From the NCBI GenBank assembly GCA_963751345.1, contig CAVVUS010000008.1, forward strand, positions 8,720 through 72,719: a DNA stretch of 64,000 bases, given 5' to 3'. Positions 29,953 to 40,531 of the stretch are shown piece by piece. Below the pieces are notes generated by a model. The model did no database searches. It worked only from the letters and a program-made list of their open reading frames with translations, and was not told where the DNA came from. The stretch is from an uncultured Chloroflexia bacterium. GTDB lineage: Bacteria > Chloroflexota > Anaerolineae > B4-G1 > SLSP01. A program made the translations under genes and the position numbers. Position 1 is the stretch's first letter; each line of letters opens with the position of its first letter.

Positions 29953-32490
29953 ATGAACATGCAACAGCTCCCCGGCACCTGATCCCCTTCGACGCCGGCT
30001 CGGCATTCCTGACGACGCGAAGCACGTTCTGGTCTTCACCGAGTCGAGCCATTGGGATCCCAACTGGTTGCAGACGTCGAAGGCCTACTTCGATCGCTTT
30101 GTGCGCACCAACCTCGACCAGGCGATCGCAGCGCTGCAGGCGGAGCCACGGCGTGTCTACGGCGTGGAGTGCATGTTCTTCCTGCGGATGTACTGGGAGC
30201 GCTTCCCGGAACGGCGCGACGCCGTCCGGGCGCTGGTCAACGCCGGGCGGCTGCGACTCACCGGAAGTGGGGTGACGACCGCCGACACGCTATTGCCCAG
30301 CGCAGAGGCGCTTCTGCGCGACTTTCTGATCGGGCAGGAGTGGCTCCGCGCGAACGGGATGGACCAGACCCCGACGCTGGCCTACTTCACCGACAGCTTT
30401 GGTGCCTCGCCTATGTTGCCGTCGCTGCTGCGAGCGTCAGGCTTCGACCGCACGACGATCACGCGCGTCGATGGGATGGCCTTCATCGGCAGTGACCTGG
30501 AATCGTCGAAGCGCTTCCCGCGGCCCGGGTCGAGTGCCGAGCGTCTGCTGGAGAAGGAGCGTTCCCTCGACTTCGTCTGGCGCGACGGCAATGGTGCCGA
30601 GGTGCTCTGTCACTGGAATGCCTTCACTTACGGACAGGGCGATATGCTCGCGTATCGTGGCCTGAGCCGCGTCTACCTCGTCCGGTTCGCCTTCCCGGCA
30701 CGATCCGACCGGCACGTTGCACGGCGTATCCGGCAGTATGTCGACGACCTTGCACCTCATAGCCGGACCCCGTATATGCTCTGCCCTATCGGCTTCGACT
30801 TTGTTGAGCCGATCCCTGATCTCGTCGAGCTTCTCGACCGGTACAACCGCAATCACTACGCAGACACCGGTGTGTGGGCGGTCAACGCCGGGCTGGACGA
30901 TTATATGGCGCTCATCGAGCCCTTCCGGGATGCGCTGCCCGTGGTGGCGCTCGACCCGAACCCGTACTGGACGGGGTTCTACGCCGCCAGGCCCGTCCTG
31001 AAGGCGCGATGCAGGAAGCTCGTGGATGACCTGGTGCTGGCGGAGCAGCTTTCGCTGGCGTCGGGTGACGTCATGGAGGCGCGCGGTGTATCGGAAGCGC
31101 TTGCGAGTGCGTGGTGGGCCGCGGTGACCTCCAACCACCACGACTTCATTACCGGCACCTCGCCCGACGAGGTCGTCGAGGAGGAGCAGCTCCCCTGGCT
31201 CGGCGAGGCGCAAGTCGAGGTGGATGCCGTGCTAGCGCGGCTTGGGGGCAGCGAGACGGCGCGGGCCGCCACTCGCGATGGCGATGCCATACGGGATGCC
31301 GGCGGGCCAGGTGCCGGGCACTCCGCCTCGGAAGGCGGAAAGTGCCAGGCACCGATGCTATCTGCGCGGAGCGGCACTCGTGGAGCCGGTGATCTGTCCT
31401 GGCGGATCGCGACCGGACGGCTCACCGTTGAGACCGCACACTACGTTGCCGAGCTGGACGAGACCGCCGGTGGGACCATCGTCAGCCTGCGCCTGCCCGG
31501 CATGGAGGCGTCACTCCTGGGTCCGGGCTCCAACGACCTCGTGACCTACCGTGATTCGGGTGGATTGTGGCGGATGGGGTATGAGTTCCGGGGTGGGACC
31601 TGGCGGGTGGCGTCGCGGGCCAGCGACACGCGGACCGAGTTGCAGGTGCGCGAGGATGCGTGGCGTCCTGGAGGTGACGTCGCTTGTGTCGCTCCGGCGG
31701 CGAGATGCTGATGCGCCGCGTGTGGTTCGACCCTGCTTCGCCCGTGATCCGCTGCCGAGCGGAGGGCATCGCCCCCGAGGGGCATACCGTGACCGTCCGA
31801 TTCGCCACCGGGTTGCCGGCCCAGGAGTTGGCGATGGATGCGCCGGGTGGTGTGGTCACGCGGCCTCTGACCAGGTATTACGAGCCGACCTTCTGGCCTC
31901 TGCAGCACTTCGTCCATCTCCGAGACCCTCAGTCCGGGCGCGGGCTGGCCCTGATGCAGCGACTGCCGGGCGCCGTCAGCGTCCAACCTGATGGCAGCGT
32001 CGAGTTGGTGGCATTCCGCAACGCACAACACGAGGTCGCCTACGGCCTGATTGGCCTGCCTGCCTGCCCGGCGCACGGCCACGAGCGGGAGCCGTATGGC
32101 TTTGACTATGCGCTCATCTTCACGGAGGCGGGCGACTGGCAGGCCAATGGCGTCGCCGAAGCGGTGCACGCTATGGTGAGCGGCGGGCCCTGGGACAGCG
32201 CCGATCGTCCGGTGCTGCGGCGCCTGGCCAGCAGTGTCGTCACGACCGACGCCGCGGGCGTGTGGGTGACGGCGGTGAAACCGGCGTCACGGGGTGAGGG
32301 TGTCATCGTTCGGCTCGCCAGCTCTGCGGTGCCCACTACGCCGGTGACCATCACAGCGCACACGCTGCCGGTCGTGCGGGCCTTCCTCTGCGACGCTCGC
32401 GAGCGCGACCTTGCGCCCCTCGAGGTCGTGGACGGCACGATCCGCGTGGAGATGCACGGCACCATCGCCACGCTGCGGCTACTGCCGTAG
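29953..32490 (+). CDS. Glycoside hydrolase family 38 (alpha-mannosidase)-like protein (frameshifts near 29985 and 31670)
   Basis: SHWDPNW (HxDxxW), FTDSFG, IGFDF, WTGFY, NHHDFITGTS, C-terminal AVKPA..G.GVIVRL; GGAGG RBS before ATG 29953. Confidence 0.85.
31310..31353. repeat. Palindromic repeat family C (GTGCCNGGCAC) inside the GH38 reading frame
   Basis: ggtgccgggcact-ccgcct-cgga-aggcgg-aa-agtgccaggcacc (12/13 outer stem, 6-bp inner stem). Confidence 0.7.
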
Positions 32491-33342: not shown

Positions 33343-36300
33343 CTAGGGTTCGATCGTGAACAGCGCCCCGTCGCTGCGTCCCCAGACCTCCGGGAAGTAC
33401 ATCTCGCTCGCCACGGCCGGGATGACCTGATAGGAGCCCGGAACTGCAGCCCGCAGGTAGTAGCGGATCTCGTAGGTGCCTGCCGCCAGGCGGGTGGCAT
33501 AGAAGACCGCGCGCTCGTCACGTAACTCCTGGTGGTCGAAGGTCGGCCACCACCAGCCCTCACGATCCGATGTGAAGCTCGGCGCGGCTTCGCCGGGCGA
33601 CGTGTTGAGCGTCGGGTCGACAGGTTCCATCCCCGCGGGGTAGAAGTCCTCCACCATAAGGTAGTAGCGCATCCGCGGGATCACCAGCGTCAGGCGTACC
33701 TCGACGAGGTCGCCCGGGCGGACATGGGTCACCGGCGTGCACGCGTCAGGCGCGTCGCCACTCGCAGCGAAGGTCGGCACACAGTAGGCGCGCTCCACGG
33801 TCACGCCGCGGGCCTCTGCCTGCAGCGACGCCGCCGGGCGGTAGATCGAGAGATCGGCCGTGTAGTAGAGAGTCCCGCTTCCCTCGCTGCGTGAGATCTC
33901 CAGCGCATTGGGCCACGCCGAGGAGAGTTCCGTCAGTGGAATCACGTGCTCGACCGTCTGCGTGAGGTTATCCGCCGAGACGGTGCCCTGGTCGAGGGGT
34001 TCGGTGTTGAGGGCCACGCCCCAGTCGTAGCTCCCCTGGAGCTCGCCGGTGGCGCGCGCGGTGTCCATCAGCGCCATCACGGCCCACGCCGTCTCCTGCG
34101 TGGTCTCCCAGTGATCGTCCTTGCGGGCGACCATGAGCCAGCGCGCGGCCTGGGGCACGAGAGGATCGTCAGGGGCGAGGCGCGCGAGCGCGTCCAGCAC
34201 CACCGAGGTCGCGCGGGTCCACGTGACCCACAGATCCGCCGCCGCACTCTCCCAGTGTGCACCCGAAGCCGTAATGCCGGCATCGGTGCGCAGGCTGTCG
34301 AGGAGCGTCGTGAGCCGCGGGTCCTCGGGGTTGTTCAGCCCGATCGCCAGCGCCAGGTAGGCGCGTCCGGTGACCTCAAGGGTCTCGCGGGCATCGTAGA
34401 GGGCCGCATCGGCGCCATTGGGCCACACACGCCCGGACTCAGCCAGGACGTAGAGCGCGAATGCCTGTGGCAGCTGCGCCTCGGACGGCGTACGCGCCTC
34501 GGACGGCGTAGCGCCTCAGACTGCAGTCCGCGCGAGAGGCTGCCCGAGAGGTAGTCGAGGGCGGCGTTGAGGGGCTGCTGGTCGACCGCGAAGCCGGCCC
34601 GCTGGGCCTGCAGCAGACCCAGGGCAGCATAGGCGCTGGTCTGGAACTCGCTCGATGTATTACCCCACCATCCCCAGCCGCCATCGGCGTTCTGGCGATC
34701 GTAGAGCTCGGTCAGGGTCTCGGTCACAAGCGTGCGAAGCTGGGCTTCGAGCCCGGCGTCGTGCCGGCCCAGCTCCTGGAGCGCCCGGTAGGTCACGACG
34801 TTGGGCAGGAAGCGGCTGACGAGCTGCTCCGTACACTGATAGGGAAAGCTCTCCAGGTAATCGAGGCTATCCACCACGCCCGCAGCCAGTGTCGGCGCCA
34901 GGCGCACCGTCAAGGTGCTGGCGGGGCCTGCATCCGCCGGGACGGTGATGACCTCCACACGCGACCCGCCTTCGGTCAGTGTGCCAGACGTCGCGACCCT
35001 ATCGGGCGTCTCGTAGCGGTAGATGGGCAGGGCCCGGTCACCTTCGCGCCCCACGCTCGGGCGGGCGGCGTCGCGGTAGCCGCTGCCTGCTGCGGAGAAG
35101 GTCAGGAGCGCAGCATCCAGGCCGGTCTCGGGCACACTGACACGCCAACTGACCCGCGCGCGGCCTTGCGCGGGGATGGAGACCTGCTGCACGGCATCGC
35201 CGGCAAGGTCCAGATCGGTCTCCAGCGCCACCTGTACGTCCAGCGCCGCGGACGTGTTATTGTTGACCACGGCGGCAACGTCGGCGCTGTCTCCGGCGAT
35301 GAAGAAGCGCGGGGTCACAGGGCGCACCAGCAGCGGCTTGGTCACGACGAGCTCCGCCGTGGTCGCACCGACCTGCGTCGCCTCGGTCACGGCGCGGGCG
35401 TCCACGACCCAGGTGGTGAGCGAGTCGGGCAGATCCACCGTCACGGTCGTCTCACCGTTCGGCCCCGTCTTGAGATGGGCTTTCCAGAGCGCCGTGTCGG
35501 GGAAGTCCTGCCGGACATCGGGCGCGAAGATGGCGCCATCACCGCCGCCACCTCCGATGCCGCCGATCATCCGCTCCATTGCCTCCTGTTCGGCGCGCTT
35601 CTGGAGCGCCTCCAGATCTGATGTGAGGCGGTTCTGCAGGACCAGCAGGCCATCACCGGTCGCGATACCCAGCGGTCGCCGGGCGTAGAAGGCCTCGAGG
35701 AGCGTCGGAGCGTTGTCGTCAGCCAGAGCCAACACGGCCTTGTCCACGACGGCCAGTGCCACCTCGGCGTCGACGGGTTGGCCAGCGGCGTCGAGCGCGC
35801 GGACGGTGACCTGCGCCGGATCGCCCGGAGCATAGGTGCAGCGCCCGCCGGCGTCACGCTCCTCCGCGGCGCACACCGGCGTCACGGTGACGTCCAGGGT
35901 CTGCCGCACGGGCTCGACCGTCAGCTCGACCATGCCCAGCCGCACGTCAGGTGTAGCCTGGTCCGCGTCCACGCCTTTGACGACGGCAAAGTTGACCACG
36001 ATGTTAGGAACATGGGCCTCTGTGATGGGTACGTCGATGACGGGATTCGCCTCGCGCACCGTGAGATGCTTGACCTCCAGGATGGTGCCCCGCTCGATGG
36101 TCATCAGGACCTCGAATGGCCCACTGAAGGGTGTCGATAGCAGGATATGGGCGACGTCGCCAGGGCGGTAGCTCTCTGCATCGGCGACGGGCTCGACCTT
36201 ACCCTCGCCCAACTGCCAGGCTGCGGTCTGCGGGCCGCCGACCCACAGATAGGTCTCGCTGCGCGCCGTGTTCCCGTTGGCATCGGTCGACTCGACCTGC

Positions 36301-39300
36301 ACCACGTACGAACCACTGGTCGGTGGCGTGAACGTGAGGGTGGCTGTGCCCGTACCGTCAGTCGTGACGTTGAGCGTGTCGACGACGGTATCCTTGTGGG
36401 TCCACGTCCCCGATGCGAAGGGCTTGGTGGGCGAGACATAGGTCCACGTCCGCCGCGCCAGGGTGGCGCGCACGTGCTGGTCAGCCACCGGCTGCTCGTC
36501 CCAGTCCAGGGCCAGCAGGTCGACGAGGGCGGGCTTGCCCGCGGTAGAGACCCACGATTGGGGCTTGAGCCCGAGATAGAAACGGCTCGTGTGCACGGTG
36601 AGGCTGCCGCTCTGGGTCACAGGGAAGCCCGTGTCGTCGGTGACCGTGGCCTCCACCTCCCAGCGCTGGGGGCCGACCGTATCCTGGTCTGACAGCGGCG
36701 CGAGATCGAGCGGCAACGTCATGACGAGGCGGCCCTCTGCGTCCGTAACGCCGTCTCCCTCTGCAACGACCTCCGGCTCGCGCCAGGGCTCCCAGGACAT
36801 CGTGTTGGCACCCCACTGCCACCAGCCGGAGACGTCGGGACTGAAGCTGTAGGGGCCGGCGCGAACCGTCCAGTGCACCGGTGCCTTGCTCACGCCGCCA
36901 CCGCTGTAATAGCTCGCCTGGATGGCCACATGGGCCATCTCGCCATCGAGTTGGTCCGCCTGCTCGGGTACCACGGTGACCTCGAACTCGGGCTTACGGT
37001 AGGCGGCGACCGCGATCTGGATGCCGGCGATCTCCGGCGTTCCCTCACCGGTGCGCAGCGAAAGGCTGTAGGAGCCCAACTGCGCATCGGCCGGCAGGTC
37101 GAAGGCCCCATCGAAGGTGCCTGCGTCAGAGACGACGGCCTCGACGGTGTCGGTCCCATTGTCGCTCCACGACGTCAGCGCGACCTGGACCCCCATGCCC
37201 GGTTCGGGAAGGCTGTACCGGCCGTCATCGTCGTTGCGCAGGATGCCCCGGAAGTAGACGGTCTGTCCGGGCCGGTAGATGGGCCGGTCGGTCTGCAGAT
37301 AGCCGCGATAGGCCGGAGGCTGGCTGTAGTCGTAGGTCACGCCAAAAGCCCAGGGGGCGACGTCGTAGTTCCAGTCGCTGCGGGCGATCCCGAAACCCGC
37401 CTGCCCCGGCTCGCCGGCGACGGCGGTGTAGGCCTCCCAGCGATCGCTCTGTGTGGGGATGGCGAGCCGGGCGATGCCGTCCGCATCACTGAGGCCGCGG
37501 CCAAGGAGGGTGCCGCTCGTTGAGAGTACCCGCACGGAGGCACCGGCGACCGGCTCTGCCGTGCGCAAGTCGGTCACCCAGACCAGGGCCTCGTCGGGCC
37601 CAACCTTGAGCAGAACGTGCAGGTCGACCACGGCGACGCGCAGTCGCTCGGCCTGGCTGTTGGTCGAACCCGGCGTGCGCCACATCACGCCGTAGAAGCC
37701 GGTGGGCAGCGCCTCGCCGTTCGCCAGTTGGACCGGGACGGCGGCTGTCCTGTTGAGCTGCCCGTCCGGGCTCACGGCGACCTGCCGGCTCGATTGGAGC
37801 GACCAGTTGCCCTGGTATCCAAGGAAGTCACGCTCCTGCAGCGTGCCCACGTCCAGCGTAAGCTGCTGCACGTTGACCGCGGTGAAGTAGACCTCGGCGG
37901 GCGAGGCGCCGTCGAGCGTGAGCGTGTCATAGCGAGCCACCGGGGCGAAGATCGGCGGCGCGTTGTCGACGGTGAAGCAGGCCTGCGCCTCGCCGGTAAG
38001 CGTGTTGCCGTAGCGATCCGCCAGGCCCGGCAGCACGGTGACACAGTAGCGTACGCCGGCCTTCTTATCCCAGCTGACCCAAGCGCCCGGCTGGTCGCTG
38101 TAGGCGTCCCAGTAGACGTTGGCGTCAACGGTTCCCGCCCCTTCCTCGGTGACCCTCACCTTGTCCGTCGTCGTCGCAGGATCGAGGAGACCCTCCAACT
38201 TGATCTGGACGCTCTCGTAGTAGGCAAGGCGCCCTGTCTTGGCGTCTGAGCCGGGGGAGATCTGCGCCACCCGCAGTGCCGGCACCGTGGTGAAGTCGGA
38301 CTGCCGGCCTGCGGCGAGAACGCCGCCGTCAAGAGAGCGTGCTGTGGTGTCGATCTCGACTTCATAGGTCGTCTCCGGCGTCAGGAGCGTCGTGGGCGTG
38401 AAGACGAGCGTGGCCCCGGCGTCCTCCCAGCCGAAGCCGCCCGTGATCGGGCCATCGGGTACGCTCGACATCGAGAACGCGGCTTCGGTGGCTTCGGGGG
38501 CCATCGGCGTGTTGAAGGTCACCCGGACGGCGCCCTCCAGCGGGCACATTCTCGCGTGCCGTTGAAGGGCGAGACGTGCTGGACGCGCGGCTCGCTCGTG
38601 GAGAAGCTGATGCTGACCGGCGCCTCCAGTGCCGCCCCGCCGGCGGCCGAGACAGTCGTCGACAGGGCGACGGTATAGTGCGTGCCGGCACTCCAGGCAG
38701 GCGTCGGGTCAAAGCGATAGACGCTGCTGTTGACCCACATTCCCTGTCCCGAGACCGGTGGTGTGATCTCCAGAGGCAGCGGCGCGCACGAACCGCCGGA
38801 CGTGGCGGCCTGTCCCGTGCAGTTCACGGGCACGACGGGGTAGTTGAAGGCCAGCAGCAAGGGGGTGTCACCGCGGAGGTCAACGGCGCCGGCGGAGGGG
38901 GTCGTGTGAGTCACCTCCAGCGGACCGACGGTGCTGAACGCGAAGGCCATCTCGCCGGTTAGCGACGTGCCGCCGGTGCTCTGCGCGTCCTGGCCGAGTG
39001 CCACCCGGTAACGCGTCGCCGAGGCCAGGACCTTGGGCTGGAAGGTGACCGTCTCGTCATCGTGCCAGGTGAAAGTTCCGGTCACAGCAGGCGTAACGGT
39101 GAGCGCCCGCTCCACACTCGCGCGATCCATCGGCTGGGTGAAGCGCAGCAGAATGCCCGCCTGCAGCGTCACCTCCTCGCCGTTACCGGGCATCGCGGTG
39201 ACGACGGCAGGCGGAAGCCCGGCGACGTACGGCGGCTCGGTGGGCACCGGCGTGGGTACGGGCGGTGTCACCGTATCTGGTACTTGCGTCTCCAATACGG

Positions 39301-39714
39301 CCGTGCCGCCAACCTGGGTCGTGGGCGTTCCAGCCGCCGGCACGCCTCCGGACGTCGGCTCCGCCGGCAGCGGATGGGCCGGCATGCCTGTGGGGAGCGA
39401 CCGGACGATAAGTGCAACGGCCAGCAGGAGAGCCACAGCGCCCCCGGCCCACGCGAACCATAGCCTGCGGGGTGGGGCGGCTCGTTGAGGGATGCCGGCT
39501 CATGCGTGCGTGCCGCAACCGGACGGCGAGACGCTCGACAAAGGAAGGGGATGGATGGATGCGCCCTGCACTGCGCCGTAACGCCTCCTCGACCTCCGCT
39601 GTGGGGTCTGACCCTGCCTGCAGGCCGTCGCCGATTTCTGCGTCTTCGCCCCTCTTGGGGCTCTTGTCCTTTTCCGAACCCCGGCTCTTCTCCGGGCTAG
39701 TCAGCTGTCTTCAT
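33343..39714 (-). CDS. Membrane-anchored alpha-2-macroglobulin with Ig-like (Big_5) repeats and N-terminal cytoplasmic domain, ~2,100 aa (frameshifts near 39700, 39470, 38550, 34511)
   Basis: TM LWFAWAGGAVALLLAVALIV; Big_5-like P...F..PM repeats; MG2 TDRPIYRPGQTV; YRKPEFEV; VRQDFPDTALW; LPDSLTTW; thioester YQCTEQ; QNADGGWGWW; C-terminal EMYFPEVWGRS. Confidence 0.9.
34476..34517. repeat. 18-bp tandem repeat in the A2M gene (encodes SEARTP), one copy 17 bp
   Basis: gcgcctcggacggcgtac / gcgcctcggacggcgta / gcgcctc. Confidence 0.85.
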
Positions 39715-40324
39715 CGACACACCTCTTCCTCAAGTCGGCTATTGCGCGTGAGACCAACATCTTCACTGCGGCGACGCTGCGCCCCATAGCGCGCGCCACG
39801 TCGTTCAGGGCCAGATCTCCCCAGTACCGAAGCTGCACCGCTTCACGCCGGTCGTCGCTCAGTTGTTGGAGCATCCGCTCTACACAGCTCAGCACATCTC
39901 TGTGCCCGGCCAGGGCCTCCGGCCCGGGTCCGGTGCCTGCCTGTGTGGGCGCTACATCGTCCCAGGAGACCGTCGGACGGGCATATGCCGCGCGGTGGAA
40001 GTCCATACACTTGTGCCGCGCGATGCCGAACAGCCATCCCAGAAACGCGCTCCTCCGCCGGTACCGGGGCAGGGCCTCAAGCGCAGCCAAGAATGTCTGC
40101 GTTGTGAGGTCCTCTGCATCGTCCGCCGTGTTCGTGCGGGCGTAGCAGTACCGGTAGACCGCCGTGACGTGGCGCCGGTAGAGCGTCTCGAAAGCCACGT
40201 GGTCGTTGACAGCCAGCTCGGCCAGCCGGTCGTCGTCGAGCTCAGCATACGTGCTCGCCGATCCCGTGGACGGCTCGTCCATAGGCCATGATGCAGACTC
40301 GGGTGCAGAAGCAGATTCCGGCAC
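39701..40324 (-). CDS. ECF (group IV sigma-70) RNA polymerase sigma factor
   Basis: Region 2 AFETLYRRH..VYRY...DAEDLT..TFL...WLFGIAR; region 4 L..RREAVQLRYW.DL...VA..MG.S..AVK...RA; GTG 40324 with GAGAGG RBS (alternative ATG 40282). Confidence 0.92.
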   Translation of the reverse strand: MPESASAPESASWPMDEPSTGSASTYAELDDDRLAELAVNDHVAFETLYRRHVTAVYRYCYARTNTADDAEDLTTQTFLAALEALPRYRRRSAFLGWLFGIARHKCMDFHRAAYARPTVSWDDVAPTQAGTGPGPEALAGHRDVLSCVERMLQQLSDDRREAVQLRYWGDLALNDVARAMGRSVAAVKMLVSRAIADLRKRCVDEDS

Positions 40325-40375
40325 AGGTATCCTCTCAGCGCTGAGGGCCCTTCGTGAATGACGTTCACCCTGAAT

Positions 40376-40401
40376 GTCGTGGTTTGGGGAAGAAGGTAAC
40401 A
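40376..40401 (-). promoter_or_regulatory. Candidate ECF autoregulatory promoter
   Basis: Minus strand TGTTACC-15 nt-CGAC about 50 bp upstream of the sigma start; resembles general ECF -35/-10 geometry. Confidence 0.4.
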
Positions 40402-40531
40402 GGCAATCTACCAGGGACCGCGGGATTCGCAAGGCCAACGCCTTGCCCTGAGGCGAGCAAGATCCGCCGCATGCAGCAGGTTTGGTGTACAATGACGCCG
40501 GGTCAACGAACATATATCATCTGGAGTCTGA

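Follow-up and report, generated by a model that had tools for sequence, protein, structure and literature searches.

This analysis concerns a 64,000-nucleotide stretch of DNA from an uncultured Chloroflexia bacterium, hereafter the window, and in particular two overlapping genes on its minus strand. The upstream gene encodes an extracytoplasmic function (ECF) sigma factor; the one directly behind it encodes a very large alpha-2-macroglobulin (A2M) whose N-terminal tail is probably an anti-sigma domain. Their features are collected in Table 1.

Table 1. Features of the sigma factor/A2M locus, in window coordinates and in the order of transcription
Feature	Position	Strand	Basis or remark
Putative ECF-type promoter	40372..40403	(-)	~90 nt upstream of the sigma start
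ECF sigma gene	39701..40282	(-)	193 aa from ATG 40282
Ribosome-binding site and start of the A2M (putative anti-sigma) gene	39712..39725	(-)	GAGG 39725-39722, ATG 39714-39712
Charged, poorly conserved ~35 residues preceding the module	39606-39711	(-)	
Conserved two-helix module (PTAEVEEALRRSAGRIHPSPSFVERLAVRLRHARM)	39501..39605	(-)	~35 residues
Single transmembrane (TM) helix (WFAWAGGAVALLLAVALIV)	39404..39460	(-)	Kyte-Doolittle mean 2.28
Pro/Thr/Ala-rich linker, from the TM helix to the first Ig-like domain	39215..39403	(-)	translations, alignment
Three Big_5 (bacterial Ig-like) matches	38286..39214	(-)	Pfam
A2M core	33388..37625	(-)	all Pfam matches above gathering score
bMG3	37332-37625	(-)	Pfam
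MG2	37017-37307	(-)	Pfam
bMG6	36261-36566	(-)	Pfam
Bait-region domain (A2M_BRD)	35724-36185	(-)	Pfam
Gly-rich GGIGGGGGDG, end of the bait region, directly before DVRQDFPDTALW	35535..35564	(-)	
A2M domain	35223-35495	(-)	Pfam
TED (TED_complement)	34542-34874	(-)	Pfam
Thioester motif CTEQ	34824..34835	(-)	
bMG10	33388-33807	(-)	Pfam
A2M stop codon TAG	33343..33345	(-)	
Frame break 1, one extra base just past the ATG	39700..39711	(-)	as assembled MKTAD-stop
Frame break 2, one extra base between module and TM helix	39474..39499	(-)	
Frame break 3, two extra bases (38541, 38553)	38541..38553	(-)	
Frame break 4, in a 17+18-nt tandem repeat in the TED region	34476..34510	(-)	

By its domains the first protein is an ordinary ECF sigma factor without a named subfamily. 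Pfam recognizes Sigma70_r2 (E 3e-15) and Sigma70_r4_2 (E 2e-11) and no other region, so that only the sigma-2 and sigma-4 domains of group 4 are present, in ~190 aa. On TIGR02937 the protein scores 73.1 bits against a cut-off of 42.9, while none of the equivalog or subfamily models reaches its own cut-off. A profile of the sigma factor matches solved ECF sigma structures, CnrH included, and the sigmas of five orthologous loci are 52-65% identical to it. Comparison with these five orthologs makes ATG 40282 the likely start. The longest open reading frame (ORF) runs from 40513 to 39701 (-), and a start at ATG 40513 is unlikely because this longer ORF would contain the promoter, which lies inside the extension.

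As assembled, the sigma frame ends with ...RKRCVDEDS-TGA (TGA at 39703-39701); removing an extra base near 39705 would shift the stop to TAG at 39699-39697. The ATG of the A2M gene, 7 nt behind its GAGG, overlaps this end of the sigma ORF, just as the original prediction had stated. The start context GAGGA-AGAGGTGT...ATG is shared by five orthologs, and a search of the minus strand between the two genes found neither a sigma-70-type promoter nor a terminator.

The A2M gene lies in four reading-frame pieces (39710-39500, 39499-38519, 38708-34335 and 34515-33343, all on the minus strand), and its true ORF is estimated at ~2,122 codons. A charged cytoplasmic tail, which contains EVEEALRRSAGRIHPSPSFVERLAVRLR, is followed by one hydrophobic helix, a Pro/Thr linker, the Big_5 domains and the A2M core. 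This is the architecture that had been read from the DNA beforehand, the Big_5 matches numbering three, of which piece 38519-39499 contains two and piece 34335-38708 the third. The Gly-rich bait and the intact CTEQ are also where they were said to be. Among eight sigma-coupled orthologs that were read, CxEQ is kept in all, and a GG(I/M)GGGG-like stretch was found by pattern in four of eight. In P0007, a 2,099-aa metagenome protein and full-length relative of the sigma-coupled type, the motif reads E-S-T-E-Q, with Ser for the thioester Cys; the thioester is therefore not kept in every member.

With its MG domains, bait-region domain, TED, C-terminal MG10 and CXEQ, the protein is by domains and thioester motif a type I bacterial A2M, for which protease trapping is predicted. 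It has no lipobox, and thus not the signal peptide/lipobox export of that type, nor is it in an operon with pbpC, the gene of PBP1c. The absence of a flanking pbpC, noted before, holds for the whole contig (C8): no Transgly match lies on it, the three of the genome being on C18, C30 and C11. The genes that flank the pair encode a GH38 alpha-mannosidase and an MFS transporter; the former (window 30068-32490, plus strand), next to the A2M gene, is broken into two ORFs that overlap.

Is the A2M gene intact? The original prediction was that repairing four single-base indels would give one protein of ~2,100 aa. Its continuity stands, while the indels are five, because break 3 consists of two extra bases. 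When the ortholog from genome G010 (same genus, intact, 2,080 aa) was compared by tblastn, residues 11-2080 were covered without loss, at 54-63% identity across all the pieces and with no internal stop. Two proteins from elsewhere run through the break sites: P0003 (1,330 aa, from another assembly, 98% identical over 910 residues) crosses breaks 1-3 and carries its own frameshift further on, and P0020 (1,414 aa, from the 90% cluster of P0003) crosses breaks 2 and 3, with a frameshift at a different position again. P0003 reads MKTATSPEKSRGSEK through break 1 (MKTATSPEKS...); both proteins cross break 2 as MSRTPQRAAPPRRLWFAWAGG, the stretch in P0003 being RMSRTPQRAAPPRRLWF, and break 3 as GTENVPLEGAVRV. 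Four sequencing runs were also assembled onto the locus, giving patchy short contigs; no RNA run was among those listed, and no run contained more than 0.18 of the sampled words. These contigs settle break 3 only, where one of run X1 (378 nt, 38500-38879) lacks both extra bases.

Break 4 falls in a repeat that codes for TPSEAR-type hexapeptides and is inserted relative to the G010 ortholog; without its 35 nt the frame is continuous, GLQSEA joining QLPQAF, and a length of 36 nt (2 x 18) would restore it too. When no more than one mismatch is allowed, the 17/18-nt unit occurs 33 times in the genome, for the most part in short tandem arrays inside ORFs. It codes for xPSEAx hexapeptide repeats, and the arrays have a period of 18 (in frame) or 17 (frame-breaking): C10:40480-40660, C11:400290-400400, C11:428790-428960, C33:61560-61700, C19:3540-3650 and window 34476-34510. 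Over the repeat, the depth of metagenome contigs rises to ~29 (vs ~3), the flanks of these contigs being unrelated. That 17-nt units break frames in other arrays suggests a systematic loss of one base.

The assembly as a whole is rich in single-base indels, and the public gene calls of this contig are fragments only, for example the 305-aa P0021. All four A2M paralogs of the genome (C8, C30, C27 and C48) are broken, with 11 breaks in ~24 kb; those other than the window gene show 1, 1 and 4 frame changes with adjoining query coordinates. The frame breaks look like assembly errors.

The hydrophilic tail before the TM helix has 80-90 residues in all, and eight positions of its module are invariant among 6 orthologs; in G010 numbering, Leu21, Ile28, Phe34 and the Arg-Leu pairs 37-38 and 41-42 are invariant. 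Over 30 loci the consensus of the tail is ALr..aa.i.P.P.Fv.RLa..Lr, then a basic stretch, then the helix. An AlphaFold2 model of the G010 sequence, built from 6 alignment rows, places helices at residues 13-27 and 34-49 and the TM helix at 61-84 (mean pLDDT 67.7); the two predicted tail helices are amphipathic and carry the eight invariant residues. The tail matches no Pfam family at E up to 1, anti-sigma families included, and a profile search of the PDB returned no solved chain, the best matches being His-tag artefacts.

Class I anti-sigma domains (ASDI, zf-HC2/RsrA-like) often carry HxxxCxxC. The tail does not belong with them, because it has no Pfam match, only two predicted helices and no His/Cys motif. 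CnrY, which is not known to have a large ectodomain, is resembled in outline only, by a very short cytoplasmic domain, here with two predicted helices, followed by a TM helix, whereas no sequence similarity to CnrY was detected by the PDB profile search. For comparison, class I domains have four helices in 101 +/- 33 aa and class II (CnrY-like) domains have two short helices in <50 aa, one helix of CnrY binding sigma-4 and the other sigma-2 (PMC7406223, in part).

As to orientation, the TM helix has an Arg-rich N side and a conserved W-x-G-A-A-x-A stretch. In 8/8 proteins the flank before the helix carries a net +2 to +6 and the flank after it -3 to 0; by this positive-inside calculation, a rule of thumb and not a dedicated predictor, an N-in/C-out single-pass topology fits. 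A twin-arginine signal peptide, suggested by PRRL before the helix, was rejected: the RR is not conserved (orthologs read RTRWP, SRLPR, KWRMP or GMKIP there) and the conserved part lies further upstream. The protein thus has what is expected of anti-sigma factors in general: a gene directly downstream of, and putatively co-transcribed with, that of an ECF sigma, and a single-pass protein with a putatively cytoplasmic N-terminus.

Does this arrangement recur? Big_5-A2M proteins of ~2,000-2,100 aa occur in 39/41 genomes of the order, several paralogs in each, under source names such as 'Ig-like domain-containing protein [Anaerolineae bacterium]' or 'alpha-2-macroglobulin'. In the closest relatives (G010, G020, G012, G003 and G021) the same tail and helix are found, with an ATG that overlaps the stop of the orthologous sigma gene. 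A profile of tail plus helix (alignment A2) matches 39/145 genomes of the order (27/70 in family f1, 10/48 in f2, 1/26 in f3) and 17/401 in an even sample of the class, with no ~2,000-aa frame outside the order; among 1.84 billion cluster representatives it finds 17 proteins at E up to 0.001. The first 88 residues of the G010 ortholog had no match in a word-based search among proteins of 155-2,000 aa, and residues 1-90 found only the query among proteins of 1,144-3,640 aa, both searches being insensitive at 45% identity.

The coupling to the sigma gene is close to complete. Of the best 30 loci, 29 have the gene of the orthologous sigma (E 1e-69 to 1e-109) immediately before the module and in the same orientation, and the one exception starts at a contig end. 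In 28 of these 29 (a count that includes L031, whose Met is probably too far upstream) the first in-frame Met falls within the end of the sigma ORF, and one locus has a 19-nt gap. The genes around the pair vary between genomes and include no other conserved candidate for a regulator. The length of the orthologs is 2,049-2,154 aa, and in family f1 the full A2M domain set was found in 7/7, TED_complement in 6/7. Thus two points on which the original prediction could have failed, whether the tail is in frame with the A2M and whether homologs keep both extension and sigma, are answered in its favor: in intact orthologs the tail is in frame, and a whole orthologous clade keeps both. The placement of an A2M in the slot and topology of an anti-sigma factor is borne out as well, since the orthologs share tail, TM helix and overlap, and the flank charges agree in 8/8.

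The other A2Ms of the order are built differently at their N-terminus, a lipobox-type signal peptide starting 26 of 27 of these paralog loci. In seven (L008-L012, L015 and L016) the signal peptide was read by eye and no sigma-like ORF is listed upstream, although L008 and L009 have only 501 and 324 nt of upstream DNA. Hidden Markov model (HMM) searches of 20 further loci found a sigma in 0/20 and the tail module in 0/20; a lipobox is present in 19 of them (15 by pattern, 4 by eye), and for the remaining one, L074, the wrong ORF was picked. One lipoprotein paralog of the window genome, C30:3347-9377, lies ~3.3 kb downstream of the Transgly gene C30:12713-13231 on the same strand, and the two may represent the classical A2M-PBP1c pairing.

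In a tree of A2M sequences the sigma-coupled proteins are separated from the rest by a branch with UFBoot 100 / SH-aLRT 99. Of the 45 rows of the tree, 19 are sigma-coupled (18 loci and the window piece) and 26 come from lipoprotein loci. Left aside were L019 and L035 (masked stretches; L035 is also a long-branch outlier in a quick tree), L022 and L033 (truncated), L034 (a contig-start fragment), L036 (the window, represented by its own piece), L074 and the non-A2M loci; N-terminal columns were dropped, more than half of the rows being empty there. The clade of sigma-coupled proteins lies within one Anaerolineae family and spans at least 8 genera. The tree shows a single origin for it, and the comparison of N-termini shows the lipoprotein signal replaced by a conserved two-helix tail and a conserved TM helix.

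The tail is not restricted to A2Ms. In family f2 the same tail, TM helix, sigma and promoter precede other ectodomains (loci L055 in G054:C246 and L057-L061 in G044, G069, G027, G025 and G068). One of these proteins (1,616 aa) carries LysM and Peptidase_M23, and five (607-941 aa) have no Pfam family above cut-off; two of the five show a weak DUF5818 match below it. An atlas search with a non-A2M ectodomain returned Chloroflexota clusters only. In the sigma tree the sigmas linked to A2Ms, 23 in number, group together (SH-aLRT 90), as do the 6 others (SH-aLRT 84), a grouping that follows the two taxonomic families. A conserved cytoplasmic part joined to exchangeable outside parts, beside one sigma lineage, is what one would expect of an anti-sigma domain.

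Weaker module matches occur elsewhere in the class, with an ECF sigma before 10 of 16 loci. Among the six-frame ORFs of the window genome, the module HMM found only its own locus at E <0.1, and a later search gave a weak second locus on C24, which is one of these 10. There, a short tail-like single-pass protein (C24:16800-17015, L096; HMM E 1.4e-4) stands directly behind another ECF sigma. Such tail-sigma pairs across the class suggest that two-helix anti-sigma-like tails may be common in Anaerolineae.

Which genes does the sigma factor serve? Dyad enumeration found TGTTAC-N16-CGAC in 27/29 of the regions upstream of the sigma genes, as against a maximum of 3-4 in ten shuffles; in the two without it the contig ends within at most 157 and 63 nt. 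Aligned, the sites give the consensus cCTGTTACctTTTt...caCGACaTA, and in the window the -35 TGTTAC (40401-40396) and the -10 CGAC (40379-40376) are separated by a 16-nt spacer. The assembly is 5.4 Mb long and 93% complete; in it, a weight matrix built from the other 26 sites gives the window promoter 40.8 bits and every other position less than 18. The operon is thus very probably autoregulated, and its own operon may be the only target of the sigma factor in this genome.

This does not hold in all relatives. In five of them the exact pattern occurs 1-3 times per genome, always including the operon's own promoter, with 0-4 occurrences per genome of the reversed pattern as control. Five extra TGTTAC-N16-CGACRT sites (L100 in G114:C1, L101 in G010:C16, L102 in G020:C82, L104 in G114:C37 and L105 in G010:C22) lie upstream of genes for a DUF333 lipoprotein, a DUF3160 lipoprotein, a membrane protein of 495 aa and two further ECF-like sigmas, and these genes could possibly be additional regulon members or cross-talk. 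An ORF of 95 aa is also preceded by such a site. The regulon can thus reach beyond the operon.

What could such a pair do? From the sequence comparisons, the pair has been rated as an ECF sigma/anti-sigma couple whose short cytoplasmic domain is unclassified and whose sensor domain is new. That the tail is the anti-sigma domain, and so binds the sigma factor, is likely, and there is a slight balance in favor of the fuller statement, a self-regulated two-gene module with a full-length A2M of the thioester type as its anti-sigma factor. The tail would keep the sigma bound to the membrane, on whose outer side the A2M would lie; foreign proteases would attack the ectodomain at the bait and/or the Pro/Thr tether; a site-2 protease, of which M50 homologs are present, would clear the remaining stub; and the freed sigma would transcribe its own operon from TGTTAC-N16-CGAC, so that re-induction replaces a single-use trap. 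That protease attack is the trigger is plausible, with the scale tipping a little to the other side. More tentative still is the complete picture, in which the membrane-tethered A2M is bait, inhibitor and sensor at the same time, a trap that replenishes itself as it is consumed, with cleavage or capture starting the release of the sigma factor.

Several observations weigh against this proposal. The tail offers only two helices at modest model confidence (pLDDT 67.7) and is similar to neither a solved chain nor any anti-sigma family of Pfam. If the bait alone were cut, a large N-terminal fragment would stay on the membrane; this is not a typical site-2 substrate, so that further trimming must be assumed. 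The relatives have 0-2 further promoter-pattern sites per genome, and P0007 has Ser in place of the thioester Cys. The same sigma and tail are joined to LysM-M23 and other ectodomains, and the signal may then be one common to all, such as envelope damage. Finally, the gene is broken as assembled, and break 4 is settled by no read or protein. Could it simply be a pseudogene in this genome, with an orphaned sigma? Five frame-disrupting indels, one of them in an inserted repeat, would suit this idea, which is nonetheless very improbable: every A2M paralog of the genome is broken and the neighboring GH38 gene split, P0003 and P0020 cross three and two of the break sites and are broken at other places, a short-read contig lacks both extra bases of break 3, the pieces align to the ortholog throughout with no internal stop, and 17-nt units of the same repeat break frames elsewhere.

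The LysM-M23 and unassigned ectodomains of the sister family are also the best argument for a different trigger, whereby the tail is an anti-sigma domain that responds to a general envelope or cell-wall signal, or to constitutive turnover, and the A2M is mainly the output. The lipoprotein genes behind the extra promoter-like sites in relatives agree with this, and the long Pro/Thr linker would make conformational signaling from bait to membrane unlikely. However, the ectodomains of anti-sigma factors generally serve to sense, the A2M fusion has been kept as one clade in at least 8 genera with its thioester motif in 8/8 proteins read, and the only strong promoter match in this genome drives the A2M itself; on balance such a trigger appears unlikely. 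Somewhat less likely again is that tail and helix are a mere membrane anchor in place of the lipobox, the sigma being a dedicated activator of the A2M gene under some other control. The tail matches no anti-sigma family, co-transcription alone would account for the adjacency, and bacterial A2Ms are known as membrane-associated (PMC5764988, in part). Yet an anchor needs neither eight invariant cytoplasmic residues nor a conserved TM sequence; the module is absent from the other proteins of the genome at HMM E <0.1, it stands next to the orthologous sigma in relatives even with unrelated ectodomains, and the loci conserve no other candidate regulator.

For the reading of the pair as a sigma factor and its A2M-bearing anti-sigma factor, RsiV is the closest precedent in logic. 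RsiV is an anti-sigma factor and one case of a sensing ectodomain; once it has bound lysozyme, signal peptidase and RasP break it down (PMC9044953, in part). As in sigma-V/RsiV of Bacillus subtilis and Clostridioides difficile, a single-pass anti-sigma would stand beside an ECF sigma; the RsiV ectodomain recognizes a hostile extracellular enzyme, and regulated intramembrane proteolysis induces resistance (PMC9044953, in part). The differences are equally clear: RsiV is small and binds lysozyme, whereas the protein here, known from its sequence alone, is a trap of ~2,000 residues with bait and thioester; its cytoplasmic domain, far shorter, has no relation to that of RsiV, and what the pair is predicted to switch on in this genome is the sensor itself.

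RsgI-type anti-sigma factors, whose N-terminal family is RsgI_N, offer another parallel. They too combine a conserved sigma-binding N-terminus and one TM helix with interchangeable sensor domains, and they are activated by proteolysis (PMC10556640, PMC9732909, both in part). Their sigma group is another one (SigI), and they sense carbohydrates or the cell wall, with no protease trap.

Among A2Ms, ECAM of Escherichia coli is a lipoprotein. It and Sa-A2M of Salmonella, both of type I, share with the window protein the MG domains, bait-region domain, CXEQ, TED and MG10, and a membrane-proximal location outside the cytoplasm, which is predicted for the window protein. Here, by contrast, a cytoplasmic tail and TM helix stand in place of the lipobox and an ECF sigma in place of pbpC, and three Big_5 domains are added, which are common to the lipoprotein paralogs of the order. 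Type I A2Ms are described as encoded with PBP1c, and the physiological role of bacterial A2Ms has been argued from such gene neighborhoods, namely pbpC and the mag operon (PMC5764988, in part).

Has such a fusion been described before? The original prediction knew of none, and a literature search likewise turned up no paper on an A2M that carries an anti-sigma module or is linked to an ECF sigma. In the ECF re-classification, PMC7826278, the main text contains no macroglobulin, A2M or Chloroflexi, and a partial supplementary file, in which a group description could be missed, no macroglobulin, A2M or Big_5.

These genes also carry a practical lesson for annotation: in indel-prone assemblies, sigma-coupled A2M genes fall into fragments. 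For anti-sigma factors, the repertoire would gain a new and very large sensor domain, together with a short two-helix module that has no Pfam family and is joined to at least 3 kinds of ectodomain in Anaerolineae. For A2Ms, this would be a clade wired to a transcription factor, in which protease attack may lead to sigma release and sigma release to more A2M. If true, it would be the first anti-sigma factor signaled by the attack of the enzymes that it inhibits, and a natural transcriptional read-out of bacterial A2M activity. The conserved promoter would then be a ready reporter for which proteases these traps see.

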